From Promethearchaeia archaeon (GTDB lineage Archaea; Asgardarchaeota; Lokiarchaeia; Sigyniarchaeales; SOKP01), in assembly GCA_029856155.1 (NCBI GenBank), contig JAHQWL010000096.1, forward strand, positions 17,140-81,139: a DNA stretch of 64,000 nt, in the 5' to 3' direction. Of the stretch, positions 1,215-21,176 are shown piece after piece (positions within the stretch are counted from its first letter, which is position 1; every line of letters begins with the position of its first letter). Below the pieces are notes generated by a model. It saw nothing but the letters and a program-made list of their open reading frames with translations. It did no database searches and was not told the DNA's origin. Made by a program: the position numbers and the translations under genes.

Positions 1215-1805
1215 ATGATAGAGTGGATTAATTTTTCAATCCTAATTATCTCAACTATACTAATGGCATTTTTCTATATTAGAAGTGTAGGTCCTGCAAA
1301 ATTAGAAAAAAAAATAGGTGAAAAAGCCTATAGGAGATGTGGAAATTATCGAATTATTGCCAGTGTTTTTGAACTAATTACTGCTGTTAATTTTATTTTA
1401 TATTTCTTTTTTCCTTTACCAATTTGTATACCTCAATATTTTTTTTGGGATTATTGGATCTCTGTTATTCTTAGTTTATTCATTCTAATTCCATGTTTAT
1501 ATATTATGCTTAAGGGAGTTAAAGATGCTGGAAGAGAGGCTCTTTTCCCAGATAAAAAACATACTCTCTATGAAGGTATATACAACAAAATTCGACATCC
1601 TCAAGCACTTGGAGAAGTGTTTATTTGGTGGGTAATTGCATTAGTGTTAAACTCTCCCTTTCTTTTTCTATATTCTATTGTATGGTTTCCAATTTTTTAT
1701 TGGTTTTGTAAAGCAGAAGAAAAAGATTTAGAAATACGATATGGAGAACCGTATATTAACTATAAAAAGCAAACAGGAATGTTCTTTCCAAAGAAAAAAA
1801 GATAA
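1215..1805 (+). CDS. Isoprenylcysteine carboxyl methyltransferase (ICMT/Ste14-like) family membrane protein
   Basis: Multiple TM segments, IRHPQ motif and EE-x-L-x3-YG-x2-Y-x2-Y C-terminal motif; start moved to ATG 1215 to avoid overlap with the upstream gene. Confidence 0.75.
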   Translation: MIEWINFSILIISTILMAFFYIRSVGPAKLEKKIGEKAYRRCGNYRIIASVFELITAVNFILYFFFPLPICIPQYFFWDYWISVILSLFILIPCLYIMLKGVKDAGREALFPDKKHTLYEGIYNKIRHPQALGEVFIWWVIALVLNSPFLFLYSIVWFPIFYWFCKAEEKDLEIRYGEPYINYKKQTGMFFPKKKR

Positions 1806-7576: not shown

Positions 7577-8509
7577 TTAAGCTTGAATTACTTCCATCAA
7601 TTTAGGAAATATTCGGGGATAATGAACAGCCATACAATGTACGCCAGCTAATAAGCCCTTTTTCTTTAGTTCGGAAATAAAGGGCTTGAAAAACTCATAG
7701 TTTGCTTGATCATACAATCTTTTCTGTTCCTTTTTATCATCCTTAAATTCTGTTTTAATATTTTTCCATTTAGCCAAAATATCTTTAGGAACATCAACTC
7801 CAGGAACAAATGTATCAAAACCCTTGGCAATACCATAGCTCTTCATTGGAAAAATTCCAAGTAAAACTGGAACGTTATACCTTTTGATCTCACTTAAAAA
7901 TTCAATGGTTCGATCCAAATCATATACAACTTGAGTCTGTATAAATTCACATCCAGCCTCGGCTTTCCTTCCAATTTTTAAAATTTCAGCCTCCATAGGA
8001 TCGGAATTTGGATTTGCAGCCGCACCAACATGAAAAGTTGGAGCATGTTCAATTTCATGGCCATTTATGGAACCTTTATCAACCATCTCTCGTATTAATT
8101 TAACTAAAGTTGCAGAATCAAGATCAAATACAGGTTTAGATTCTGGCATATCTCCAAGGGCAGGATGATCACCAGTAAGAGATAACACATTTCTCAAACC
8201 CAATGCATGAGCTCCCATAATCATTCCAGCTATGCCTAATTTATTCACATCTCTTACTGTAAGTTGCCAAATCACTTCCAATCCAGCTTCTTTTTGGATA
8301 ATATGAGAAGCAGCCATACTATTAATTGTTACTATCCCTAAAGGACTATCAGTGACATTGGCAGCAACTACGTAGGGAGCCATTTCTTTGGCTTCTTGAA
8401 TAGTATGGGAGAGATCACACGTTTTTTCGGGCTCTAACTCACCAGTTAGTATAAAATCCCCATTTGTTAACTTTTCACCTAATTTAGAATAAACTTTTTT
8501 TTCTGCCAT
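7577..8509 (-). CDS. metF: Methylenetetrahydrofolate reductase MetF (copy 1)
   Basis: TGELEP, ANVTDSP, QLTVRD, LTGDHP, DLDS, AAANP, FIQTQ. Confidence 0.9.
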   Translation of the reverse strand: MAEKKVYSKLGEKLTNGDFILTGELEPEKTCDLSHTIQEAKEMAPYVVAANVTDSPLGIVTINSMAASHIIQKEAGLEVIWQLTVRDVNKLGIAGMIMGAHALGLRNVLSLTGDHPALGDMPESKPVFDLDSATLVKLIREMVDKGSINGHEIEHAPTFHVGAAANPNSDPMEAEILKIGRKAEAGCEFIQTQVVYDLDRTIEFLSEIKRYNVPVLLGIFPMKSYGIAKGFDTFVPGVDVPKDILAKWKNIKTEFKDDKKEQKRLYDQANYEFFKPFISELKKKGLLAGVHCMAVHYPRIFPKLMEVIQA

Positions 8510-8516
8510 TTTAACT

Positions 8517-9188
8517 CTACCTCCATACTACTTCTCGTTGATGACCAGATTCGCTCCAATCCACTGGATCTCTCAATTTGGAGAATAAATCTAATCTCCC
8601 TATTTCTTTCAATCGATTATAAATTAAAACCCAGCCACAATCTTTCTCGTAATTGCCAACTTCACATTTACCATTAACCATTCCACCGCATGGCCCATTC
8701 ATAAGCGATTTAGCACATGTGGTTATGGGACAAATACCTCCTGTTTCATTTAATAGACAATCACCACACCCTCGACATCGCATATAAAATCTGCCAATTC
8801 TCTCCGTCATCCCCATAAATTCTGTATTATTTGTAACAAACACTCTCTTTTCTGGATATTTTTTAGATAGCACCTGAATTATTGATTGAACCCCAAGTCC
8901 GCAACTTAAAGTGACAATAGAATCAGCTTCTTGAACATCAGCATCATTTTTACGTACAACTTTAGCCATTTCCCTATTATCACAGACATCATCTACAACC
9001 ATGCCATTAACTATTTCATATCCTTCTTTCTCTAAGATTTCTTTCCATTCCTCTAAACCTTTTTCACCACCTGTTTGACATAATGCTGAACAAACCCCAC
9101 AACTTACAAGAAACAATTTTTTAGCATTATTATCTTTCAGAACATTAAGGACTTCCTCTACCGGCTTTTTAGTAGTTATAACAACCAT
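8517..9188 (-). CDS. metV: MTHFR small Fe-S subunit MetV (copy 1)
   Basis: CGVCSALCQTGG, CGLGVQ, CRGCGDC...GICPITTCAKSLMNGPCGG...KCEV...CGW; directly upstream of metF; ATG 9188 preferred over GTG 9197. Confidence 0.88.
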   Translation of the reverse strand: MVVITTKKPVEEVLNVLKDNNAKKLFLVSCGVCSALCQTGGEKGLEEWKEILEKEGYEIVNGMVVDDVCDNREMAKVVRKNDADVQEADSIVTLSCGLGVQSIIQVLSKKYPEKRVFVTNNTEFMGMTERIGRFYMRCRGCGDCLLNETGGICPITTCAKSLMNGPCGGMVNGKCEVGNYEKDCGWVLIYNRLKEIGRLDLFSKLRDPVDWSESGHQREVVWR

Positions 9189-9413
9189 TTTTTTCACAAA
9201 TTTTTTTTTTTTTAAAAGGTATTTTTTAATCTTAAGTAGTGAAATTAATCAAGATATTTATTATTTTGAGTTATGAAATGTAACGTTTCGAAAAGAAAAA
9301 TATTAAAAATAAAAATTTATATGATAAAAAAGAAACTATTATACCTAAAAGAGTTAAATTTTAGACCCCTTTCACGTTCACAGTCCAATTAATAAAGAGT
9401 ATAATCAAAGGTC

Positions 9414-10388
9414 ATGATATTCAATTCTTTACCACCAGAAGGATATCCCGAAGGATATCACTTAGGACCATCTCTAGTTCTTTGGTTAATATTAATAGCC
9501 CTACAAATGTTCTATGGCACATTTTTACTACTTCAAGCATACAAATCACATTTGATCAATGAAAAAGAAATTTATAGGGGAACTGGCTTTCTTTGTGTTG
9601 GAGGAGGATTCCTTTTTTTATTAATGCAGATTGGAGTTTTTATGCCTGAGGATTATTTCTTATACTATTTTGGCGGATGCATTGTTTTATTAGCTTTAGA
9701 CACATTTTATTTCTATTATTGGGAAAAAAATTTAGTCAATTTGAAGAAAATACCCACATTAATCATTTTAATTAATTTTTCAATATACATTATCACTTTT
9801 CTTATAATATTATTGTTTAGGGTCTCGCCAATTGTATTTATTTCTTTAATAGAGATGTTAACTATATTTTCAGGTTTATTAGCTAATTGTTTCATAATTA
9901 TTTTTGTATTCTTATTTACGAGAAGGGTAAAAGGAACACTTAGAAAAAAAGGTATATTGTTAATCATTGGAAGTAGTAGCTTTTTCTTAGGTCAATTTAT
10001 CGACCATCCACCAGGGATGTTCTTATTTCCCAGCTTATTTATTCTTTTAAGCCCACTGGTTTTTATGATTAGTTTTAGCTTTATTTTTTTTGGTATCAAA
10101 GGGATCGCAGATAACGTGTCTTCGTACTATAACCAAGTACACATTTGCCTTGTTCACCGTGGAAAAATAACGGCGGAAAGATCCATCTATTATTGCCCTA
10201 AATGTTCCACGATTTACTGTCAAGATTGTTACGAGCAAGTTGTCAGGCATGATGGCTGCTGGAATTGCGGAGAACGTGGAAAGGACATGTCAAAAGTTAA
10301 ATCAGAGGAACGATTAAAAGACGAAGAAATAATAGTGAAAGATGGAAGCAAAGAAACCCCTAAAAAGATTAATAATCACAAATTATAA
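9414..10388 (+). CDS. Seven-TM membrane protein with C-terminal 8-ligand RING-like Zn finger
   Basis: Seven hydrophobic stretches followed by CLVH-x12-CPKC-x4-CQDC-x9-CWNC. Confidence 0.75.
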   Translation: MIFNSLPPEGYPEGYHLGPSLVLWLILIALQMFYGTFLLLQAYKSHLINEKEIYRGTGFLCVGGGFLFLLMQIGVFMPEDYFLYYFGGCIVLLALDTFYFYYWEKNLVNLKKIPTLIILINFSIYIITFLIILLFRVSPIVFISLIEMLTIFSGLLANCFIIIFVFLFTRRVKGTLRKKGILLIIGSSSFFLGQFIDHPPGMFLFPSLFILLSPLVFMISFSFIFFGIKGIADNVSSYYNQVHICLVHRGKITAERSIYYCPKCSTIYCQDCYEQVVRHDGCWNCGERGKDMSKVKSEERLKDEEIIVKDGSKETPKKINNHKL

Positions 10389-10420
10389 TGCATAAAGCTT
10401 AAAAAAATAAAATATTGAAT

Positions 10421-10879
10421 TCATAATGGAAAGACTTCACTTGGAAATGAATAATAGTCTTGGCCATTCTTTTGAACTAACTGAATTTGCTGATCTGCAA
10501 TCAATTCTGATAGAATCAATTCATATTTTTTCTTTATATACCTTTTAAAAGAAGAGGGATTTATTTTTTCATTTACATTCTTTAGTAGCGCATTAGCAGT
10601 ATACGAATTCTTAGCATTTGTCTTTAAAAAATTAAAGATCTCTTTCTTAGAAGTTGTGTAATAATCTTCGGTTTTTTTCTTGAAAGAAATTTTTCCTTTA
10701 ATAAAGAGATAAACTAACAAAGAAATCACAAATGTCAAAATGTATGATAAAATTTGATATAATAAATCATTATAAATTATCCCTATCATGATAAAAATGA
10801 AGTCTATTATACTAAGAGTAATAGAAAATAATGCAAACCCTAAATCCCACTCAGTATATTCTCTTCTAATTCGAGTCAA
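10421..10879 (-). CDS. Hypothetical 2-TM protein with soluble C-terminal (possible winged-helix) domain
   Basis: Two N-terminal hydrophobic helices; GGTGAG immediately before TTG. Confidence 0.6.
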   Translation of the reverse strand: MTRIRREYTEWDLGFALFSITLSIIDFIFIMIGIIYNDLLYQILSYILTFVISLLVYLFIKGKISFKKKTEDYYTTSKKEIFNFLKTNAKNSYTANALLKNVNEKINPSSFKRYIKKKYELILSELIADQQIQLVQKNGQDYYSFPSEVFPL

Positions 10880-11207
10880 CTCACCGGAAATTTATCATCA
10901 CCTTTAATGATTAGAAATGTTAAATAATTTGAATTTATTGTTATAATCTTTCCTTTCATGGTAAAAGTAAAATTTTGAGTATATAAATATTTACATGGAA
11001 TAAAGAAATTACTCAGATAATCGGGAGACTTTGAAAAATTATACGCAATCTCTAAGGAATAAAAATAATAGGAATCTAGAAGAATTTTTGTATGTTTGAA
11101 ATATTTAATGACTTTTATGTCGAAATGTCCATATTGTAATAATGAATATTAATAGGGAAAATTAAGAATCTAATTCATAAAATAAGCTGAAATAAAATTT
11201 GAAAAAT

Positions 11208-11252
11208 TTATAAAGGAAACACTTTCTCGGCTTCTTTCTCATCAAATTTTAA
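11208..11252 (-). repeat. Isolated 3'-end fragment of the 12349-12618 gene family (LKFDEKEAEKVFPL*)
   Basis: 41/45 nt identical to 12349-12393, same orientation. Confidence 0.9.
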
Positions 11253-11268
11253 TCTCAACTAAAGCTTC

Positions 11269-12186
11269 TTACATTATTTCTCTGTTAAAGATCTCAAGTG
11301 AATCCTGTAGGTCAGGACTTTCTACTACTATAACCATTTTTTTAACACCCAAATTTTCAACTTTCTGTATTTTTTCTTTAATATCCTCAGAAGTACCCAT
11401 AAATAGGTATTTCATGTGGGATTCTAAGATTTCTCTTTCTCTTCTTAGACTTTCAAGACTTTCCTGACTGTCTACTATTGTAACATTAGAGAAAAGAGAG
11501 ATCTCGAACTCCGAAGGATCACGGTTGTACTTCTTTAGTTTTTCTTTAATTGTAGAAATACTATCTCTCAATACTTCTTGTTGTTGTACATCTAAATAGG
11601 GTAAGTTTATTCCATCTGCTTCTCTACAAGCAATATCAATCATTCTCTTTCCATTTGTTCCTATTACGATCTGCGGGTACGGTTTCTGAATGGATTTAGG
11701 AAAATTCCTATGTCTTTCCAGTTTCCAAAAATTACCCACAAAGTTAGTTTCATCTTCAGTAAATATCTTCTTATAGATGGTCAGTGATTCCTCTATCTCA
11801 TCAACTCTTCTCTTTGGTGTGTGAAATGGGTAACCATACGCCATATATTCTTCAGCATACCATCCTGCCCCTAACCATAATAAAACTCGCCCATTAGAAA
11901 TATGATCTAAAGTCAGTATAACTTTAGCTAAATAAGCTGGATTACGAAAGGAGTTACACAACACAATATGACCTAATTTGATTTTGTTAGTTTGCGTTGC
12001 TAAAGCTGCTAATAGTGTATTAGCCTCTAGAAAGGTTTCTTTTTTTTCTTGAGTGTCATCAAAACCTAATAAATGATCAGTAACATGAACAGATTCAAAC
12101 TCTAATCCTTCAAGTCTCACCGTTAGATCCCTAATTTCAGGATAGGTACGATATGAAGGATTTCTTACACAATACCCAAATCTCAT
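11269..12186 (-). CDS. LLM-class (luciferase-like) flavin/F420-dependent oxidoreductase
   Basis: TDHL, LAALA..T..IKLG, FRNPAYLAK...TLDHISNGR..LGAGW..EEY.AYG. Confidence 0.9.
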   Translation of the reverse strand: MRFGYCVRNPSYRTYPEIRDLTVRLEGLEFESVHVTDHLLGFDDTQEKKETFLEANTLLAALATQTNKIKLGHIVLCNSFRNPAYLAKVILTLDHISNGRVLLWLGAGWYAEEYMAYGYPFHTPKRRVDEIEESLTIYKKIFTEDETNFVGNFWKLERHRNFPKSIQKPYPQIVIGTNGKRMIDIACREADGINLPYLDVQQQEVLRDSISTIKEKLKKYNRDPSEFEISLFSNVTIVDSQESLESLRREREILESHMKYLFMGTSEDIKEKIQKVENLGVKKMVIVVESPDLQDSLEIFNREIM

Positions 12187-12348
12187 AGGCTTAAAAAAAA
12201 CCTAAAAATATTAAATCTTATTATTTTCGTCAAAACACGCAAATATAAACCCATTAGGCTGAAGTATTATATTTCAAATGATCTGTGAGATCATACAGTG
12301 AAAAATTATAGAGAATGCAAAAAACACTAAAAATAAAAGTTAGAAAGA

Positions 12349-12618
12349 TTATAAAGGAAAAACTTGCTCGGCTTCTTTCTCGTCAAATTCTAACTCGCGC
12401 AATCGGATACGGATCTCACGGGGAGTAAAAGAAGTTTTTAACACTTCCAACACGTTATCATGTAAGGCTTTCAAATTATCCATCGCTGCTTGATAATAGA
12501 AATTTTTCTCATTAAAGTTTATAGCAACAATGTCGTTTAAGCCAGCGAGCGCCTCCCGAACATTCCTATAATAAGCCATTACATCATCCAATTTTTCTTC
12601 TTTTTCTATATGTCCCAT
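12349..12618 (-). CDS. Small helical hypothetical protein ('gene A' of a multicopy divergent pair)
   Basis: 89 aa ORF with GAGGGA SD-like site; paralog at 17031-17222 is 48/55 aa identical over the C-terminal part, with many synonymous differences. Confidence 0.85.
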   Translation of the reverse strand: MGHIEKEEKLDDVMAYYRNVREALAGLNDIVAINFNEKNFYYQAAMDNLKALHDNVLEVLKTSFTPREIRIRLRELEFDEKEAEQVFPL

Positions 12619-12659
12619 TTTATTCCCTCAATCATTTACGTGTTTTACAATTATTGATA

Positions 12660-13160
12660 ATAAATTTCGATATATAAAGGTGTCGCTTTTCGATCATAAC
12701 GTTGCGATGATACGATCAACCTTTTACATCAAACCGATCAGAATTTATGAATACAATCACAAATTTTAAGGATATGAAAAAAATATTTTGCATTATAATG
12801 CTGGTTTTTGGTTACGAAAAGTGTCGATTGTGATTGATTTAATCAATAAAACAAAAGTGAATGTCGGATGTTGATCATTTTTTTGTCGTTGAATGACTGA
12901 AAGGTTACTTTGTTCAATATATTTTGCTTTTTCCAGTCAATTACATTCCGAAATTGTTTCTTACATTCTAAATAAAAAATATGAAAAATTCATTACAACC
13001 CAAAAAGATCCCACAAGAGAATATGATCATTTTTTCGTCATTTTGTACATTTTAAAAATACAGAATGTTTTGTTTTGACAGATTCCGTACTTTTCATTGA
13101 GAATTATGACTGAAAACATTTAAATATGAGAGTGATAGTATAGTGATCAGTCAAAAAATA
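12660..13160. promoter_or_regulatory. Divergent promoter region with periodic and inverted motifs
   Basis: TATA-like boxes at 12671-12678 (minus) and 13119-13126 (plus); CGATCA at 12691/12713/12735; TGACTG...CAGTCA boxes at 12894-12939 and 13107-13153; TGATCATTTTTT at 12872 and 13024. Confidence 0.55.
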
Positions 13161-13210
13161 TTAAAAATAAAAATAAATAAATCAAAAATGTTAGGATGTG
13201 ATAACGAAAA

Positions 13211-13552
13211 ATGGAACCATTATCAAAAATAGAAGAAAAAGTTTCTAGGCTAACAGATATCCAAAGGACTGATATTTATGAATATGCGAAAAGGGTGAGT
13301 AAGGAGACTCTGGAAGAAATATGTCCCGCGCTATTACGGTTGGCATTAGATTCTGAGCGGGGGATGCTCAAAAACCAGTTAGGTAATGTAATTTTTCATC
13401 TTCAGAAAAATGAAAGAATTAATACAGTAATTGGGCTTCAGAAGTTGCTTGATGCAGGTTTGATAGTTAATCCTGATGAGATGTTCAAGATTCTTGAGAG
13501 TTCTGAAGCGGATGCTCAGGAATTAGCCAAAAAAATTAAAGGGGTTTTGTAA
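13211..13552 (+). CDS. Small helical hypothetical protein ('gene B' of the divergent pair)
   Basis: 113 aa ORF with GGATGTGA SD-like site and downstream T-run; decayed paralog at 16976-17032. Confidence 0.85.
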   Translation: MEPLSKIEEKVSRLTDIQRTDIYEYAKRVSKETLEEICPALLRLALDSERGMLKNQLGNVIFHLQKNERINTVIGLQKLLDAGLIVNPDEMFKILESSEADAQELAKKIKGVL

Positions 13553-13556
13553 ATTC

Positions 13557-13565
13557 TTTTTTTTT
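13557..13565 (+). terminator. Archaeal oligo(T) terminator-like run
   Basis: T9 run a few nt after the 13552 stop. Confidence 0.4.
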
Positions 13566-13702
13566 CAAGACCTTTAATAGATTATTTTTAATCTAGTTTT
13601 TATTATAGGTAAGAGGATAAATATTATTATTGAAAAATCTTACTTTAACATAAGACCTAAATTTGGATTTTTTTTGTCAAATTCTTTTAGCTTTTATTAA
13701 AG

Positions 13703-14983
13703 ATGTCAGATTTCCTAAAAAAATTAGCAGATTTAAACACAAGAGATGCAAGATTAAATAATATTATTGATGAGTGTAATAAGAAGCTTAAAGTAAATCC
13801 TAACTCAATTGAGTTATTAATTCAATTAGCAGAAGCTTATAATTTAACTGGCCAATATAAAAAAGCTGTACTATTATGTAAAGAAATTCTAAAATTAAAA
13901 CGAGATTATAAACCTGCCTTGAATAACCTGTTCTTTGCATATGATCGGCTCGAGAGTTTTGATCAAGCATTAAAGATTTTTAAAAGATATTTAGAAGAAT
14001 TCAATTTAGAAAAAAAAGAAGAATTACAGAGACTTTCTTTCTCTATTTATCTCAAAAATTATTTTAAAGATAATAAAGATGAACCATTTTTAGAAATTCA
14101 CCTACCCCCCCATTACCCTTCAAAAGTAATAGATATAAATTTCAGTACTTCATTTCATTTCTCTAAAATTGGATGGTCCTCGCACAATTCTGATATTCTT
14201 AGAATTACATTAGAAAAGTATCCTCAAGATATTGAATTATGGAATTCTCTAGGATTTAGTTATTTTTCTATGGAAAAATATGATGATGCTAAAAATGCAT
14301 TTGATAAAGCTTTAGAGATTGATGACAAAAATATCATGACTCATTACCTTCTAGGTTCTTTTTATTTGAAAAATAAAGAACCTGAAAAAGCGAAAATAGA
14401 GTTTATTTCTGTTATTATCCATTTACCTGTATCATGGAATAGAGGTATTTCATTGATAGAAGAATCTTCTCAAAATCTTACTTTAAACATACAAGCATTG
14501 AATAAATTAGGAGAAGCTTATATTAAATGTGGAGAATATGAAGAAGCAATTAAAGATTTATTAAAAGCTTTAACTTTGACTAAACTATCATTTCCTTCAA
14601 TAACAACTCTTTTTGTAAGATCTTCAAAGAGTTTTGTCTTGTCATATATATATAAGAATTTAGGTATTGCTTATTATTCTTTAGATGATATTAAAAAGGC
14701 TCTAAAGATGTTTAAGAGAGCATTAAAACATGATCCTGAAAATGTTGAGATTTTAGAATGTTTAGGAGAGATATATTTTGACATGAAAAAGTATAAAAAT
14801 GCATCTGAAGTTTTTCAACATGTTGCAGGAATCAAACCAGAAGATCCTCGGGGTTGGCATATGCTATCTAAATCATATTATAACAGTAGTAGGACTGAAA
14901 ATGCTAAAGAAGCAAATTTAAAATGTTTAGGACTTGATCCTAACTATAAACCAGCATTAGAATTACGTAAGGAACTAATTTGA
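13703..14983 (+). CDS. Tetratricopeptide-repeat protein
   Basis: Multiple TPR consensus repeats (e.g. WNSLGFSYFSMEKYDDAKNAFDKALEID, NLGIAYYSLDDIKKALKMFKRALKHDP). Confidence 0.9.
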   Translation: MSDFLKKLADLNTRDARLNNIIDECNKKLKVNPNSIELLIQLAEAYNLTGQYKKAVLLCKEILKLKRDYKPALNNLFFAYDRLESFDQALKIFKRYLEEFNLEKKEELQRLSFSIYLKNYFKDNKDEPFLEIHLPPHYPSKVIDINFSTSFHFSKIGWSSHNSDILRITLEKYPQDIELWNSLGFSYFSMEKYDDAKNAFDKALEIDDKNIMTHYLLGSFYLKNKEPEKAKIEFISVIIHLPVSWNRGISLIEESSQNLTLNIQALNKLGEAYIKCGEYEEAIKDLLKALTLTKLSFPSITTLFVRSSKSFVLSYIYKNLGIAYYSLDDIKKALKMFKRALKHDPENVEILECLGEIYFDMKKYKNASEVFQHVAGIKPEDPRGWHMLSKSYYNSSRTENAKEANLKCLGLDPNYKPALELRKELI

Positions 14984-15050
14984 GTTTAGTCTGAATTCTT
15001 AAAGAAAGATACAAATGAAATTTAGAAGTAAGAATAATAAAAGTTGTATT

Positions 15051-16145
15051 TTAGTTCGCGTTGAGTTTAATAATTTCTTCTTTTGATAAAAGATATCCAT
15101 GGTTTGATTTCCATACTAAAATGTAATTGAATAAGAAGCTGAGAATGTAAGGTAACTTGGTAAATGGTCCAAATTTGATAAATTCCTTTGAATTATATGA
15201 TTTACAGATTTTAATAAAATCATAATTCTCTAATATATTTCTATGACTTGCAAGGGGACCTTTGCTAGATATAAAATTGAATGTAGTTTTTTTATTGAGT
15301 GCAATTTTACATAAAGTTTTTTGCTTTTTAAGCAGAAATTCATTTTCATTGAAAACTAATTGATTATTTTTATAAGATGTTCTTTTTACCATACTAAAAA
15401 TTTGAACAACTACAACAATAGCATAGGCTACACCACAAGAATAAATTACTAATGGAACTACTAAATTATTAACGAAAAGAGATATTATATAATTTAATAG
15501 ATAACAGAAAATAGGAATTAAAATTAACACAACCGAGTATATTACCTTTAACTTTTTTAATTGTTTTAATTTTACAACCGAAATTTCATACATTTGGGGA
15601 AATTGGAAATTAGTTTCATTACATATTTGTTTCAACCTTTCTTCAACCTTTCCATAGTAAAAATATATGGATTCGATAATATTTTGAAGTGTATGCATAT
15701 TAGGGACATTTTTTATTGAAATTTTTTTGGGAATTAAATCATTAGTCACGAATTCAATTGTTCCAGAATCAAAATTTTTATCAAAAAACCTTTTACGAAA
15801 AACAATACCCCTAAAAGAATTTAAAGGGTAGGAATGTACATTTTTTAAAGGTAAAGGAGATTTATCATAATGATACACATAGAGATTTATATTTGTTAAA
15901 AGAAAGTAACATATTTTTTTTTCATCTTTAATATTGAAACGAATTAGAGTTGGATTAATTACTATAAGTGATACACTTATCGCAAGAATACTTATAAGTA
16001 AATCATCTAAAGCATATATAAGTAAGACTGAAAAAAAAACATCTAAACCTCCCACCATTAAAGATATAGAAAAAATCATTGCTTTTTTATTCACAATTTT
16101 TGGAGATTTATATAAAATAATTTCATCCTCATCGATTCTTTGCAA
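15051..16145 (-). CDS. Membrane protein with two (2TM + PH-like) repeats
   Basis: Two TM hairpins, each followed by a beta-rich domain; FLLTN and GTIEF motifs typical of bacterial PH domains. Confidence 0.55.
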   Translation of the reverse strand: MQRIDEDEIILYKSPKIVNKKAMIFSISLMVGGLDVFFSVLLIYALDDLLISILAISVSLIVINPTLIRFNIKDEKKICYFLLTNINLYVYHYDKSPLPLKNVHSYPLNSFRGIVFRKRFFDKNFDSGTIEFVTNDLIPKKISIKNVPNMHTLQNIIESIYFYYGKVEERLKQICNETNFQFPQMYEISVVKLKQLKKLKVIYSVVLILIPIFCYLLNYIISLFVNNLVVPLVIYSCGVAYAIVVVVQIFSMVKRTSYKNNQLVFNENEFLLKKQKTLCKIALNKKTTFNFISSKGPLASHRNILENYDFIKICKSYNSKEFIKFGPFTKLPYILSFLFNYILVWKSNHGYLLSKEEIIKLNAN

Positions 16146-16238
16146 TAGAATATCAGGGATAATGATTTCTCACCAAATTCTTTTGTTAAAAACTTAGAAT
16201 TTTTTTAAAGTCTTTTTTGTTTATTATATTTAAATTTT

Positions 16239-16856
16239 TTATATATCTTGATTCTCAATAGACTTCCCACATTTACTGCAAAAGCTCGCATTAAGGGAAA
16301 TTTTTTTTCCACAAAAGGGACATATACTTTTGGGAGCGACTTCTGAAAGAGGAACAACATTTTGAGTTCTGCCTCTCCTTCCAGCTTCTGAATATGACAG
16401 AAAAGAACCCATTCCTATCGCTAGAGTTCCTCCCATAATCGGGCCAATAGCACCAAATCCTGGATTTAGAGAACTCCAAATGCCATATGGGAAGTTTCCA
16501 TTATAAGTATAAAAATCTAATGATATTAATGACACTATTGTTCCACCTAAAATAAAACCACCGCACCATATCCATAAATTCCCTATATTTTTATTTTCGA
16601 AGTACTTACGGTGGTATAAGTACCCAGTTAGTATTAATATCATTGAAAATGCCAATACCACTATGGTTATGCTTATTCCAGTAATAAGAATTACTTTATC
16701 ATTAATAAATTCAATTTGATTACTAGAACTTCTTTGAAAAACTAATCCCCACATCCAAATGCTAAAATATGTATAAAGAGTAGCAATTGGAGTTAATATT
16801 CCAACTAGGGCTAGTATTCCGCTAAAAAAGGGAAATAACCACCAATATTTTTTCAT
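16239..16856 (-). CDS. Four-TM membrane protein with C-terminal zinc ribbon
   Basis: Four hydrophobic segments; CPFCG-x8-CSKCG. Confidence 0.8.
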   Translation of the reverse strand: MKKYWWLFPFFSGILALVGILTPIATLYTYFSIWMWGLVFQRSSSNQIEFINDKVILITGISITIVVLAFSMILILTGYLYHRKYFENKNIGNLWIWCGGFILGGTIVSLISLDFYTYNGNFPYGIWSSLNPGFGAIGPIMGGTLAIGMGSFLSYSEAGRRGRTQNVVPLSEVAPKSICPFCGKKISLNASFCSKCGKSIENQDI

Positions 16857-16975
16857 TTTAACAACACTCTAATTATGATTACTGGATTTTTATAATTCAA
16901 AATAATTCAATTAATGTTTTTAATATAAAATTTTCTGTGATATATATATAAATTCTACTATATAAAGAAAAAATT

Positions 16976-17032
16976 GTCACTAGGGAGACTTAGAGGAAGC
17001 ATATTAGTACGGTGATTGGGCTTCAAAAACTT
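16976..17032 (+). pseudogene. Internally deleted remnant of a gene B paralog
   Basis: Encodes VTRET(L)EE (1-nt indel; cf. VSKETLEE) joined to ISTVIGLQKL (cf. INTVIGLQKL at 13418-13447; 9/10 aa, mostly third-position changes). Confidence 0.75.
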
Positions 17033-17222
17033 GTCTGAAATTTTAAACATGTATTTTAACGAGAAGGACTTCTATCATCAAGCAGCGAGGGATAATTTGA
17101 AAGCTTTACATGATAATGTGTTAGAAGTGCTAAAAGCTTCTTTTACTCCTCGGGAGATTCGGATGCGATTGCGGGAGTTAGAGTTTGACGAGAAGGAAGC
17201 CGAGAAAGTGTTTCTTTTATAA
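17031..17222 (+). pseudogene. 5'-truncated paralog of gene A (covers most of predicted ORF 17016-17222)
   Basis: 48/55 aa identical to the C-terminus of 12349-12618; N-terminus replaced by the gene B remnant; opposite orientation to the intact copy. Confidence 0.85.
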
Positions 17223-17502
17223 ATTGATTGCATTTTATCTTTAGCATATTTTTTGAACTTACTCTTTTTATAGCTTAATTTTAATTATTTATCTCAAGAG
17301 TGGATTATCCTGTCCCGAACTTAGGTTGCCATAATTACAATCAGTATACCCGGCAAAATTTAGGATCCAGTTCAACTCAGTGGCTCAATAATAGATTGTT
17401 TGATTTAGGTTGTGTACACCGGCTTTTTTCTTTCCTCCAAGTTTAATAACTTAAATATTATCGAAAATTACACTAGTTAAATCCAAATGTATATAGTAAA
17501 AG

Positions 17503-17742
17503 ATGTTTATGAAGGAAGAAGAAATCATTGAGGAATTAAAAAAATTAGGAGAAAAAGTTGGTAGTAATATAAGAATTAATCAAGATATTCGTACTATTCT
17601 TATGGTTATAATGATATCCCTTGTGCTTTTCATGGTTTTGTTGTTAATAAGTTTTCCTGACCCTTTCATTGCCTCTTTTATACTCATAGTTCCTTTGTTT
17701 GTAGGAATATATGAAATATTGAGAAGAAGGGGTTGGATCTAA
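17503..17742 (+). CDS. Small 2-TM hypothetical protein
   Basis: Charged N-terminal helix, two TM segments, basic C-terminus. Confidence 0.65.
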   Translation: MFMKEEEIIEELKKLGEKVGSNIRINQDIRTILMVIMISLVLFMVLLLISFPDPFIASFILIVPLFVGIYEILRRRGWI

Positions 17743-18046: not shown

Positions 18047-18496
18047 TTATAGATAAGGCAAAAATTTCTCTAGAGTTATTTTCGCTCCTATTTTTGACGG
18101 GATTTCAACTGCTTTCTTTACTTCATCATAAGAGTAACCCTTGTTGTATAAATTTTCTATTGCGGGAGAGAATACCTTTTTATAGTATTTATCACCAATT
18201 TTATCAATAATTTTATCAAATTCTTTAGTAGTTATCCATTTCTCCTGCTTTCTATGAGTTATTGATAAACCTTTTTCCTTTCCCTTTTGTTCTAATTTAT
18301 ATTTCTGAGTTTCTTTTCCTAAGCGTGTTTGATATCCAACGATAGCAATTACAATACCATGGATCTTTGCCTCTTCTTCATTATGTCCAGCTTTGAGCCA
18401 GTCAATACGATGATATTCAGAGATTATATCCCATTTACCTATTTTAATTAACTTTATCTCTTCTAATTCTTTTGAGTTAAAAGCTTTCGATACCAT
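18047..18496 (-). CDS. Hypothetical protein
   Basis: 149 aa ATG-started ORF with normal coding composition; no motif recognised. Confidence 0.7.
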   Translation of the reverse strand: MVSKAFNSKELEEIKLIKIGKWDIISEYHRIDWLKAGHNEEEAKIHGIVIAIVGYQTRLGKETQKYKLEQKGKEKGLSITHRKQEKWITTKEFDKIIDKIGDKYYKKVFSPAIENLYNKGYSYDEVKKAVEIPSKIGAKITLEKFLPYL

Positions 18497-20015: not shown

Positions 20016-21176
20016 TTAGACAATAAGATGAGCATCGTGCTCTTTTAAAGAATCTGTAAGAACCAAACATAGTTTCTCTAAAATTTTTACATCAATTTTG
20101 TCAATTGTATCATTAGGTGTATGCATATAAGCATATGATTCCACACCACCAATTCCAAATCCTTGAAGACCCCTATCTCCTAAAAAACCTCCATCGGAAT
20201 GCGTACCTAGAACCCTTTCTTTAGGGTAATGATTAATGGGAAGATTTCTTTTGTTATTCAAAAGTTTATGATCAATATCTTTAGCATGATCTCCTTCATT
20301 TTCTCCAGGCCATAATAAAACATACTTAGCTATGGATTCAAAATTAAATATTAGCGATTTGCTGGGATCAAAATTTACCAAATTATTATAAAAATGTCTA
20401 ATACCCATTGTTCCGCATTCCTCAGCTCCAGTAAAAAGAAACCATATATGATAGTTTTGTAATCTGTTTTCAGGAATGCAATAATAGTTTACCAGTTCTA
20501 AGTTGCATGCTATGCCAGAAGCATTATCAATTGCACCATTAGAACTGTTGTCCGTAGTGTTAAGAAGCATCAATATCGAGGAAAAAATATTAATTATTAA
20601 AGGAAATAGCCCGATAATATAAAATATTAGTTCAAATCCAATAATTATCAAATTTTTAAGAATTACAATGAATGTTAGAATAATTGATGAAGCGATCCAA
20701 AACTTAATTATTCTTATTCGGAATCCGACCTTGAATCTTTGTCCTTTAGAATCCACATGACTCACGAACAATGCAATTCTGCCAATATTTTTTATTTCAT
20801 TTGAAAAAGGTTTAATTTTTACTAGTAGATTTTGTGATTTGAATTTTGGTATGATTTGAATATTCTCTGGTTTTCTTGTAAAAATAATCGAAGTAATCAC
20901 AATTCCAAATAATGTAAGGATTATTATCGTAGAGTAAATCATAGATGTGTTCAAATAAAGGAGTAATAATATTAGCGAAACGGATAAAAATGTGATTTTA
21001 GGATATATTCTCGAATAAAACGAACTGAAAGTAAAACCTTGGACTTCAAATTGCAAATTAAGGTTTTCAATTTCTTCTATTATTTTATTAAATGCTTCAA
21101 ATTCAAATTTAGTTCCAGATAATCGAGGAAAAGCAAATTTTTTAAGATTTTTTTTAATTCGGGCTTCTTCAATCAT
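20016..21176 (-). CDS. M28 family membrane metallopeptidase
   Basis: SHVDS, GAIDNASG, TGAEECG, HSD and HTPNDT motifs; TM insertions. Confidence 0.88.
   Translation of the reverse strand: MIEEARIKKNLKKFAFPRLSGTKFEFEAFNKIIEEIENLNLQFEVQGFTFSSFYSRIYPKITFLSVSLILLLLYLNTSMIYSTIIILTLFGIVITSIIFTRKPENIQIIPKFKSQNLLVKIKPFSNEIKNIGRIALFVSHVDSKGQRFKVGFRIRIIKFWIASSIILTFIVILKNLIIIGFELIFYIIGLFPLIINIFSSILMLLNTTDNSSNGAIDNASGIACNLELVNYYCIPENRLQNYHIWFLFTGAEECGTMGIRHFYNNLVNFDPSKSLIFNFESIAKYVLLWPGENEGDHAKDIDHKLLNNKRNLPINHYPKERVLGTHSDGGFLGDRGLQGFGIGGVESYAYMHTPNDTIDKIDVKILEKLCLVLTDSLKEHDAHLIV

Follow-up and report, generated by a model that had tools for sequence, protein, structure and literature searches.

Probable integrase-free stacking of cassettes at the tails of two resident genes in a Lokiarchaeia-type archaeon

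Two small divergent genes of a Lokiarchaeia-type (Asgard) archaeon, here called A and B, are accompanied by several partial copies of themselves within 8 kb, with other genes lying between the copies. The locus raises the question of what has moved: the gene pair itself, or DNA that settled beside it. The window, i.e., the whole stretch of DNA that was analysed, comprises 64,000 nt and belongs to a draft metagenome assembly (104 contigs, 5.7% contamination). An earlier note on the same DNA had considered A-B a repeatedly inserted non-autonomous mobile or addiction module, a reading that is contradicted by the presence of one full copy per genome, in synteny and 70–90% identical across one genus. 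A and B reside in the chromosome and are inherited vertically. They serve as landing pads at a fixed position, and blocks of unrelated accessory genes have settled right behind each of them. These arrays were probably built up by the stacking of cassettes through single crossovers at the tails of A and B, with no integrase involved.

Two resident genes and the copies of their tails

That A and B are real and divergently oriented, as the earlier note had it, is confirmed by the ORF listing of the window, in which both reading frames are open (Table 1). The A trailer of ~30 nt is T-rich and conserved. Database relatives number 117 for A and 199 for B, with identities of 55–92%. The 4.1-Mb host genome contains a single full-length A and a single full-length B, and one of each per genome was also found among relatives; B is present in 102 of the 126 genomes of the family. 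In 12 related genomes, tblastn located the pair between the same flank genes, represented here by 8517-9197 and 7577-8509 on one side and by 18047-18496 and 20016-21176 on the other. The gene pair is old: in other genera of the family it is arranged in tandem (B, then an A-like gene), and it is divergent in this part of the genus.

Protein A is predicted to form a three-helix hairpin and protein B a helical bundle with seven predicted helices. Neither matches a known family, and searches of Pfam, NCBIfam and PADLOC returned no toxin, antitoxin, defence or mobile-element family for either of them. The distribution of the genes is single-copy and syntenic, not patchy, multi-copy or mobile as is asked of toxin-antitoxin systems. 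The death-fold superfamily is a six-helix Greek-key bundle superposable on DD, DED, CARD or PYD domains. Most of the top VIA-align matches of protein B were DED, PYD, CARD or DD domains, with Z of 5.0–5.8 and rmsd of 3.0–3.4 Å over 75–87 residues, values that lie below the VIA-align caution line for helical bundles. Among atlas entries, protein B came closest to an EAD7-TIR cluster (TM 0.45), and Foldseek gave no match below E 0.9.

Table 1. Features of the A/B locus, with positions in the window.
Feature	Position	Strand	Remarks
Anchor gene A	CDS 12349-12618	minus	89 aa, intact open ORF; feature 12319-12618 including trailer
Anchor gene B	CDS 13211-13552	plus	113 aa, intact open ORF; feature 13211-13580 with T-run trailer
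Divergent control region common to A and B	12619-13210	none	
61-codon ORF in the control region	12893-13078	plus	Conserved in relatives; tblastn 41–90% in 8 loci
Degenerate terminal A-tail copy	9296-9335	minus	Stop and T-rich trailer; outer end of A-side array
Cargo, multi-pass membrane protein with C-terminal Zn-finger	9414-10388	plus	
Possible worn A-tail trace (weak)	10401-10437	minus	nhmmer, A positions 254-290, E 1.8
Cargo, 152 aa	10421-10879	minus	No family
Displaced ancestral 3′ end of A	11190-11252	minus	Last 15 codons, stop, 18 nt of trailer
Cargo, luciferase-like (LLM, F420-type) oxidoreductase	11269-12186	minus	Pfam PF00296, E 9e-42
Cargo, TPR protein	13703-14983	plus	B side; Pfam
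Cargo, membrane protein	15051-16145	minus	B side; no known family
Cargo, Zn-ribbon membrane protein	16239-16856	minus	B side; Pfam
B partial copy	16998-17034	plus	Codons about 68–80; outer end of B-side array
A′, 5′-truncated copy of A	17030-17252	plus	Codons about 26–89, stop, trailer; inverted relative to A
Small membrane ORF, 79 aa	17503-17742	plus	Between A′ and flank gene 18047-18496

The displaced end of A beside the LLM gene had been reported as a 45-nt fragment (11208-11252). The fragment is real and its true length is 63 nt; it is 86% identical to 12331-12393 over these 63 nt, and an A profile made only from relatives scores it at E 3.4e-13. The A copy near 17 kb, called A′ here, is equally real, with a blast match of 198 nt at 83% (17055-17252), a profile match of 17030-17244 to model positions 78-292 (E 9e-63), and a frame that is open for 57–68 codons. 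Comparison of A with A′ gave 35 identical, 14 synonymous and 7 non-synonymous codons (dN/dS 0.10), and A′ clusters with the full-length A of G043 (94/86), one of the related genomes that are cited below by such codes. The B remnant had been placed at 16976-17032, which stands in part: a profile built from relatives matches the B partial copy at positions 203-239 (nhmmer, E 5.5e-5; next match E 0.26), and 16976-16997 is unsupported. As a bare 26-nt match (22/26), this copy scores no better than four chance matches in the window. Its 11 codons comprise 4 identical, 5 synonymous and 2 non-synonymous ones, so that differences are mostly synonymous in both remnants, as had been claimed. The 5′ edge of the B partial copy is that of B partials in G049 and G100, and its other end is cut off at profile position 239, where another B fragment is cut in G074. 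The B and A′ pieces meet at 17030-17034 and are thus fused directly, in agreement with the earlier description, and the junction recurs on a separate contig with 100% identity over 421 nt. The single-crossover model alone does not explain the inverted A end at the far end of the B array.

Two further traces on the A side, missed in the first reading, lie farther out. The degenerate terminal copy (blastn, q260-299, 75%, E 0.009) adjoins the conserved promoter region of flank gene 8517-9197 and aligns collinearly with the corresponding block in G043, G075, and G009. The weaker trace falls at the expected end of the cassette of the 152-aa gene, a position at which G075 and G100 carry an A partial. 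The A-tail motif was found nowhere else in the 4.1-Mb host genome.

Filled and empty loci in related genomes

The position of A and B is fixed among relatives, and what follows them is variable. In G043, only about 280 nt follow A and about 170 nt follow B; in other genomes 1 to >12 kb lie behind the anchors (>12 kb in G049). Such blocks end in a same-strand, 5′-truncated copy of the tail of that anchor, and in G009 the outermost A copy passes without interruption into the conserved flank-gene promoter. Among ~35 extra A or B matches in 13 loci, all but two are 5′-truncated, 3′-complete, downstream of their parent and on its strand, the exceptions being A′, which is inverted, and, in G123, a marginal match of 37 nt that is internal. 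The tail copies stack in arrays of up to four (B side of G049; A side of G117), and homology always ends about 30–38 nt past the A stop and about 10–30 nt past the B stop. Their 5′ edges are recurrent, at about q100-118, 173-182, and 224-239 for A and at about q206-219 for B; they may just as well stem from element families with fixed att-type boundaries.

One filled-versus-empty pair can be followed at the level of alleles. G075 lacks the LLM block only, and the window exceeds G075 at this site by an insertion of 1.14 kb, made up of a new tail and the LLM gene and accompanied by a 63-nt duplication; the resulting 63-nt repeat surrounds the LLM block while A is intact, and likewise in relatives. 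The displaced copy continues collinearly, at ~95% identity, into the cassette that follows A in G075. In the alignment it keeps the G043/G075-type end, GAG AAA GTG, whereas the working A ends GAG CAA GTT. Since G075 is without the LLM block and the displaced fragment carries the ancestral allele, the difference amounts to one 1.14-kb insertion with a 63-nt duplication. The LLM block is the most recent insertion on the A side.

The cargo itself is patchily shared. The LLM gene is absent from this site in G043 as well as in G075, and orthologs of it are carried by 22 of 53 genomes, at numerous other loci. The cassette of the 152-aa gene is found directly behind A in G075, and also in G100 (tblastn 96% and 70%), and the gene for the Zn-finger membrane protein was not found in any of 13 related loci. 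Neither G043 nor G075 has any of the three B-side cargo genes (13703-16856) on its B side. In G092, too, the Zn-ribbon gene is linked with an A′ copy, and relatives lack the 79-aa ORF. Cargo genes lie on both strands. Pfam supported the LLM, TPR, and Zn-ribbon labels that had been assigned to the cargo earlier, and did not reproduce a PH-domain label.

The fragments had been thought to descend from once-functional paralogs. Instead, partial copies group with local A alleles and there is no paralog clade; dN/dS between partial and full copies is 0.0–0.15, the same as between orthologous full genes. Judged by these sequence relationships, the partial copies behave as displaced or imported ends of a single gene A. 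In three arrays, the 5′ part of the partial copy is closer to the A of its own genome (0.94–0.95) than simple import predicts, which requires gene conversion or very close donors. It is improbable that A′ and the other open partial copies are working truncated paralogs, encoding the last two A helices and kept by selection. Open frames of 51–68 codons in four genomes, the prediction of A′ as a gene by gene callers (P0111), a dN/dS of 0.06–0.18 among A′ copies, and a G049 A′ protein identical to that genome's own A over 49 compared codons despite a dS of 0.66 would fit such a role. However, the copies form no clade of their own, their upstream sequences bear no relation to one another across genomes, so that a common start or promoter is missing, stops occur in other partial copies of this type, and low dN/dS is expected if the copies belonged to a working gene until recently.

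Single crossovers and the competing explanations

Each insertion left a spare anchor tail behind fixed genes, and the two-gene module is therefore not the mover. The contrary idea takes the A-B pair for a module that inserted repeatedly, be it non-autonomous mobile, addiction or regulator, and the fragments for decayed remains of entire units; it was suggested by the small size and adjacency of the genes, by their several partial copies, and by the 17-kb piece that holds parts of both. It is highly improbable given the conserved synteny, and extra copies never include the 5′ part of A or B and, save for the inverted A′ and the marginal G123 match, lie downstream of their parent; the lack of toxin-antitoxin, defence or mobile-element family matches and the confinement of the A-tail motif to this locus also speak against it. 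The earlier note had itself named single-copy, unlinked genes with conserved flanks in relatives as the finding that would count against a module; the genes are single-copy with conserved flanks, and they are linked. Scarcely credible is the suspicion that the partial copies are assembly chimeras of co-assembled strains that differ behind A and B. Such a draft, with its contamination, invites the thought, and variable regions behind shared sequence are typical trouble spots, but the copies differ from their parent by 14–25% and would not collapse together, the B-A′ junction is identical in a second contig, and the pattern is also present in the single-contig 3.3-Mb genome G092 and in a dozen other assemblies. 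The exact A protein recurs on six further contigs, which come from at least five different samples, and the longer of these repeat the B-A-LLM order of the window.

In cassette stacking, the reading that we prefer, incoming DNA would carry its own copy of the last 15–65 codons of the anchor and its terminator. A single crossover (a Campbell-type “pop-in” of a circular molecule) within the stretch common to the incoming DNA and the resident gene would keep the anchor gene intact, now with the incoming allele as its end, place the cargo directly behind the anchor terminator, and displace the old anchor end outward as a 5′-truncated same-strand copy. Repeated rounds would pile up cassettes of one or a few genes, with the outermost tail copy remaining attached to the original downstream flank, and the tail repeats may later permit deletion, shuffling, and inversion. 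In our view, the general homologous recombination machinery of the host, not a cassette-borne integrase, would carry out these exchanges. In the order of events that we infer for 17 kb, the B-A′ junction would be a secondary illegitimate join, in which the normal outer edge of B was severed at codon 80 and became attached to a displaced end of A; we propose that this junction is a by-product and not a functional unit.

Searches for recombinases found none in the arrays: genome-wide, PF00589 and PF00239 only were searched, and the cargo scan covered 30 of 106 ORFs. No recombinase, integrase or transposase was detected among these 30 ORFs, several of which belong to no family and could hide one; the earlier statement that no transposase or integrase is visible holds for every ORF between 9.4 and 18.5 kb. 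None of the PF00589 matches in 54 genomes of the genus lies inside an A or B array. The host genome has one tyrosine recombinase (PF00589) match, on contig C81, and no serine recombinase (PF00239). Most of the 54 genomes have just one PF00589 match, with near-identical scores across the genus, which suggests that the C81 match is a housekeeping Xer-type enzyme.

Classical site-specific integration is unlikely. In that scenario, elements with a tyrosine or other integrase would use the 3′ ends of A and B as att sites, repair the gene with the end borne on their own attP, and accumulate; what is left would be decayed remnants without an integrase, or satellites mobilised by an integrase encoded elsewhere. 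Direct repeats of the target 3′ end, gene restoration, and tandem accretion are its textbook outcome, the recurrent 5′ edges of the copies fit fixed attP limits, and the cargo-side boundary is sharp, about 30–38 nt past the A stop. There are precedents in thaumarchaeal elements in the 3′ ends of protein genes (PMC6563490) and in tycheposon islands, with stacked elements and scattered partial tRNAs (bioRxiv 10.1101/2020.12.28.424599). Against it stand the results for PF00589 and serine recombinases, a viral contig collection in which no A or B tail pattern was found, and repeats whose length at one and the same anchor ranges from about 40 to 200 nt. Moreover, at least eight different anchor genes in one genome would require several integrases.

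Likeness to known systems and other anchor genes

Campbell-type insertion-duplication (“pop-in/pop-out”) is familiar chiefly from plasmids and from its use in the laboratory. Its hallmarks recur here: direct repeats of the shared homology flank the insert, the target gene survives undamaged, resident and incoming alleles are combined in one of the repeats, the exchange can do without a dedicated recombinase, and the repeats allow later excision. Unlike the usual Campbell events, those proposed here are natural and repeated, involve gene tails of 40–200 nt and presumably circular donors, and yield ordered arrays at many anchors. Integron cassettes are co-oriented and promoterless and end in imperfect-palindrome attC sites. 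The present arrays resemble them in their ordered build-up behind a fixed site, in their small cassettes of miscellaneous function, most of which hold one gene and each of which terminates in a repeat, and in the toxin-antitoxin-like cassettes (by N-terminal motifs) of the lrp sister array. Unlike integrons, they are without IntI, the sole PF00589 match being that on C81 and none lying in the arrays of 54 genomes; their cassettes are found on either strand and presumably bring promoters of their own, and their boundary repeats, unlike attC sites, appear from their sequence to be the coding 3′ end of the anchor plus its T-rich trailer.

Among 68 thaumarchaeal integrated elements, 14 sit in the 3′-distal part of protein genes, an AsnC-family regulator included; these elements are proviruses, plasmids or casposons of 5–100 kb with an integrase or casposase and short att sites (PMC6563490). 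Such elements, and accretion at tRNA genes, share with our arrays the targeting of a conserved-gene 3′ end, the supply of a new stop, direct repeats, and re-use of the site, but the inserts here are single accessory genes of 1–3 kb in which no recombinase was detected, and their repeats are longer and differ in length. Tycheposons of Prochlorococcus have tRNA genes as their targets and carry their own tyrosine recombinase gene, and integrase remnants are seen (bioRxiv 10.1101/2020.12.28.424599). Similarly to the arrays here, their islands hold a conserved position beside a conserved gene, newcomers push older inserts outward, partial target copies are scattered, and the cargo consists of adaptive accessory genes; unlike in tycheposons, no integrase remnant was found in the arrays. 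At rhs and other polymorphic-toxin loci, an incoming 3′ end also recombines with the conserved portion of the resident gene and displaces the old end, which is left downstream as an orphan fragment; it brings a different toxin tip with its immunity gene (PMC2935791). Here, in contrast, the peptide encoded by the incoming end is unchanged, all differences being synonymous, and what is delivered is a neighbouring gene unrelated to the anchor.

A and B are not the only anchors in this organism. Self-BLAST of the host genome identified at least seven other genes with the same tail-copy pattern, the fragment lying downstream in 8/8 cases, and the other anchors include an Lrp/AsnC regulator, a small GTPase, and an MFS transporter. 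The Lrp/AsnC regulator has four tail copies, between which lie pairs resembling toxin-antitoxin systems by N-terminal motifs. The earlier suggestion of a cassette-capture hotspot that drives gene turnover matches the genome comparisons.

Genes A and B as a resident pair

Genes A and B are divergent open frames 592 nt apart, and each occurs once at full length in this draft genome. Beyond both A fragments, the genome holds just one distant A paralog (28% identity), and the 26-nt core of the A tail (gene 3′ end plus trailer) occurs three times, always at the A-B locus. Many database relatives of either protein have exactly its length at 55–92% identity; the named relatives of the window's proteins come from MAGs annotated as Lokiarchaeota/'Promethearchaeota', and A and B locus tags are neighbours in named MAGs. 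In a search of 150 genomes of the class, B was present in 102 of the 126 that belong to the same family, almost always in one copy, and A-like genes in 111 of these 126. In other genera, an A-like gene (~40% identity) lies on the same strand within ~50 nt behind B, so the pairing is old, and the divergent order is a variant that only some members of this genus have. In 12 related genomes, the pair is enclosed by homologs of the same flank genes. The earlier note had proposed a mobile A-B module or a hotspot of gene turnover; single full-length copies and shared flanks argue against the module, while the hotspot has held up. A and B are resident genes rather than a moving module, and they are identified here as a conserved Lokiarchaeial gene pair without prior characterisation.

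Relatives keep a 61-codon ORF between A and B (amino acid identity 88–90% in the two closest genomes and 41–55% in others; shorter in three), which may represent either a small gene or conserved regulatory sequence. Elsewhere in the genome, behind the distant A paralog (92 aa), lies a gene that is ankyrin-repeat-like by its sequence; on both sides of this gene stands a 79-nt direct repeat, intergenic (83.5%), fairly GC-rich (…TCAACCCTTCTTCAAGGAGATATCAGGGA…) and unlike a coding tail.

Neither A nor B had a match in Pfam, NCBIfam or PADLOC, profile searches against PDB sequences gave nothing under E 0.07, and Foldseek searches of both models against PDB gave nothing under E 0.9. Both structures are predicted with confidence. 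The A model (pLDDT 87) is a three-helix hairpin, for which VIA-align returned generic helical hairpins only. The B model (pLDDT 84) is a helical bundle of seven predicted helices; an ESM Atlas feature search with B gave scores below 0.9, and its best shape match there was a bacterial EAD7-TIR cluster (TM 0.45). Over residues 15–113, comprising six of the seven helices, the best structural matches were mostly death-fold domains (DED, PYD, CARD, and DD), but these were weak (Z 5.0–5.8, rmsd 3.0–3.4 Å, 75–87 residues) and below the tool's caution line. The death-fold likeness of the predicted structure is a lead; if real, B would be a death-like adaptor fold conserved throughout a Lokiarchaeial family.

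Gene tails and cargo in the window and in relatives

The extra A copies described in the earlier note were recovered by repeat finding and blastn, and both these and the B fragment by profiles made solely from the A and B genes of ten related genomes and then searched against the window. Contigs of other samples have the same gene order. The B and A pieces come into contact at 17030–17034, and this B|A′ junction is base-for-base identical over 421 nt in a second contig. As a plain 26-nt match, the B fragment does not rise above four chance matches within the window, and it is credible because of its profile match (the following match has E 0.26). Differences from the full genes are mostly synonymous, as had been claimed: the counts of identical, synonymous and non-synonymous codons are 35, 14 and 7 between A and A′, and 4, 5 and 2 between the B remnant and B.

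Features of the A-B locus and of related loci (window positions refer to contig C97:17140-81139 of draft genome G000, 4.1 Mb in 104 contigs; other rows give genome, contig or locus)
Feature	Position	Strand	Remarks
A tail copy	window 9296-9335		degenerate
Cargo gene	window 10421-10879		152 aa
A 3′-end copy (11.2-kb fragment)	window 11190-11252		86% over 63 nt to 12331-12393; profile E 3.4e-13
LLM (luciferase-like) oxidoreductase gene	window 11269-12186		cargo
Gene A	window 12349-12618	minus	89 aa
ORF between A and B	window 12893-13078	plus	61 codons
Gene B	window 13211-13552	plus	113 aa
TPR gene	window 13703-14983		cargo
B fragment	window 16998-17034		profile positions 203-239, E 5.5e-5
A′	window 17030-17252		17055-17252 is the reverse complement of 12319-12516 (83% over 198 nt); profile match 17030-17244, positions 78-292, E 9e-63
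Distant A paralog locus (L046)	G000 C4:32787-34842		A paralog, ankyrin-repeat-like gene
Lrp/AsnC locus (L040)	G000 C100:1813-10239		gene followed by four tail copies
Lrp/AsnC gene	G000 C100:9772-10239	minus	anchor of L040
Anchor with own 3′-end copy downstream	G000 C71:16771-20647		brackets insert
Anchor with own 3′-end copy downstream	G000 C89:12971-15885		brackets insert
Anchor with own 3′-end copy downstream	G000 C5:4213-6427		brackets insert
Anchor with own 3′-end copy downstream	G000 C3:8924-10461		brackets insert
Anchor with own 3′-end copy downstream	G000 C21:25630-29466		brackets insert
B, then A-like gene	G001 C21:1185-1514, 1561-1800		tandem
B, then A-like gene	G035 C1:8273-8602, 8656-8889		tandem
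B-tail array	G049, behind B		four tails (q206-351, 209-351, 296-344, 305-349)
A-tail array	G117, behind A		three tails
A-tail array	G009, behind A		two tails
Repeated segment with short A tail	G092 L027 12421-12689, L028 7360-7628		269 nt, 97.8% identity
Intergenic repeat (L052)	G117 C86, 3090-3144, 4392-4436, 5649-5694		45 nt, three times

Among related genomes, G043 has ~280 nt from A to its flank gene and ~170 nt from B to its flank, G075 has a single additional gene behind A, and the longest inserts reach 8.6 kb (G053) and >12 kb, the latter spanning a contig break (G049). Sensitive blastn across the 13 loci returned extra A and B matches of which almost all are 5′-truncated, 3′-complete, on the same strand as the full gene and downstream of it; A′ and a marginal 37-nt match in G123 depart from this pattern. 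Every copy has the final codons and the stop codon, followed by a T-rich trailer (~30–38 nt with the motif TTTTATTTTTAGC for A; ~10–30 nt with a T7–9 run for B), past which they change abruptly to unrelated cargo.

The cargo comprises 106 ORFs, 77 of them singletons. The 30 that were scanned are ordinary accessory genes, encoding proteins of TPR and LRR type, oxidoreductases of flavin and TPP type, hydrolases, an MFS transporter, GNAT-MarR and radical SAM proteins, an M24 peptidase, and a NosD-type beta-helix protein; none of these 30 is an integrase, transposase, or virus gene. Travel of the LLM gene together with an A or B tail was considered and rejected, as its orthologs are spread over many loci, where flanking repeats were mostly undetectable. 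In PADLOC, the 152-aa cargo protein weakly and partially matched a model for oligonucleotide cyclases (E 4.6e-5); the TPR cargo matches PDC-M71B, a candidate defence model (E 3e-8), and its TPR repeats alone probably account for this match. In G092, assembled as a single contig, the two copies of a segment carrying a short A tail lie ~2.45 Mb from each other in one direction round the circle and 0.9 Mb in the opposite direction. At a G117 locus, the intergenic repeat AAGGTAAATTCAGCGTCTGATTTCAATGAAAATT separates a 368-aa gene and an ortholog of the LLM oxidoreductase. In reverse complement, this repeat has ATTGAAAT, recalling CRISPR repeat ends, but the spacing is >1 kb.

Origin of the tails and of the 17-kb chimera

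One insertion can be read directly. G075 has the order A, trailer, 152-aa gene, whereas in the window the same trailer and the 152-aa gene (~95% over 350 nt) come after the 11.2-kb fragment and not after A. In alignment, the window has an extra 1.14 kb, running from the last codons of the working A through the LLM gene and including a 63-nt duplication. The displaced fragment ends GAG AAA GTG TTT CCT TTA TAA, as does A in G043 and G075, whereas the working A ends GAG CAA GTT. This allele pattern shows that incoming DNA supplied a new gene end and that the old end was displaced outward. In G009, the outermost A copy continues directly into the flank gene's conserved promoter in alignment, as expected of the original gene end. 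The A-B locus is a clean, datable case, in which the site is near-empty in one species and filled in another and the alleles are sorted as predicted. A mosaic over the whole length of the current A was considered and rejected, with no clear signal beyond the last ~20 nt.

The partial copies have dN/dS values of 0.0–0.15 against full copies, the same range as full orthologs. In a tree of partial and full A copies over a shared 147 nt, the long partial copies are scattered and form no common group; the G049 copy groups with A of its own genome (100/98), and A′ with the full A of G043 (94/86). The copies are therefore not an old paralog but ends of A alleles that were functional until recently. 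Within some arrays, a copy is in its 5′ part much more similar to the A of the same genome (0.94–0.95) than to others (0.78–0.83), a bias the trailer lacks; this points to gene conversion or very close donors. If the insertion mechanism is general, short annotated 'paralogs', e.g., the 57-codon A′, are most likely scars.

The B piece of the 17-kb chimera begins at q~207, the usual 5′ edge of B boundary copies (G049, G100), and is cut at position 239, where an unrelated B fragment in G074 is also cut; at this cut it joins an A end beginning at position 78. G092 likewise has an A′ copy linked to the Zn-ribbon gene that lies by the chimera; there, the block is 0.9–2.5 Mb away from A and B and the A-B core is inverted relative to its usual flanks, so that inverted A copies are associated with rearrangement. 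We treat the B|A′ junction as a secondary illegitimate join. Other accounts were tried and rejected: no path with one or two inversions covered the missing rest of the B partial, whose sole match downstream of A′ was a chance A-rich stretch (17535–17564); a worn A 5′ part upstream of A′ scored no better than shuffles (681/2000); and the A′ copies of four genomes do not have a common upstream junction.

Routes of insertion and reach across the genome

Self-comparison of the genome revealed the same tail signature at further genes besides A and B, with a tail fragment downstream in 8/8 anchors. An Lrp/AsnC gene is followed by copies of its last ~20–40 codons that differ only synonymously and that separate apparent toxin-antitoxin pairs of PIN/AbrB, HEPN/MNT, and RelE type (from N-terminal motifs) and beta-helix proteins; its architecture is that found behind A and B. 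Several further anchors have one tail copy each, among them a small GTPase and an MFS transporter. Membrane proteins, an MFS transporter, and a Ras-like small GTPase are among the five anchors on C71, C89, C5, C3, and C21, and behind the Ras-like GTPase the cargo consists of a gene for an ABC-transporter ATPase plus two more ORFs.

On the favoured reading, circular DNA that bears a gene tail enters behind such anchors by single-crossover homologous recombination. Classical site-specific integration at gene tails, which has a precedent in Thaumarchaeota (PMC6563490), would account for the recurrent 5′ edges of the copies, but, though a live alternative, we consider it the less likely one given the many anchors, repeat lengths varying from ~40 to 200 nt, and just one housekeeping-type recombinase. 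Most of the 54 genomes of the genus, this one included, have one tyrosine recombinase match (PF00589), whose near-identical scores genus-wide suggest a housekeeping Xer-type enzyme; none of the 54 has such a gene in its A or B arrays, and this genome encodes no serine recombinase. The A or B tail pattern was absent from a viral contig collection, and scans with Rfam and for tRNA genes found nothing in the window, so it has no tRNA-type attachment site. The number of anchors, the repeat lengths, and the lone recombinase favour homologous recombination by single crossover over site-specific integration.

The A-B locus is a new variant form of gene-tail insertion and accretion. More tentatively, and at rather less than even odds, Lokiarchaeia may have a general, recombinase-free cassette system in which the label of each mobile accessory gene would be a copied tail of a conserved host gene, its coding kept by selection and its synonymous sites diverged, and in which ordinary homologous recombination would stack, swap, and invert cassettes behind many anchors (A, B, lrp, small GTPase, MFS) as a main route of accessory-gene gain. 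Such a system would be functionally analogous to integrons but differ from them in principle.

Lokiarchaeia are the archaeal lineage closest to eukaryotes, and to our knowledge few mobile elements have been described in them. The genomes of Asgard archaea are large and rich in genes, and they contain much material gained by horizontal transfer, for which entry routes are poorly known. The locus shows addition of a single gene that leaves the anchor gene working, with no visible integrase, and its value is mainly as a clean case of genome-wide, integrase-free gene gain in Lokiarchaeia. A general mechanism of this kind would account for the hypervariable regions that these genomes have at fixed positions, and recent acquisitions could then be found through 5′-truncated tails downstream of the parent gene.
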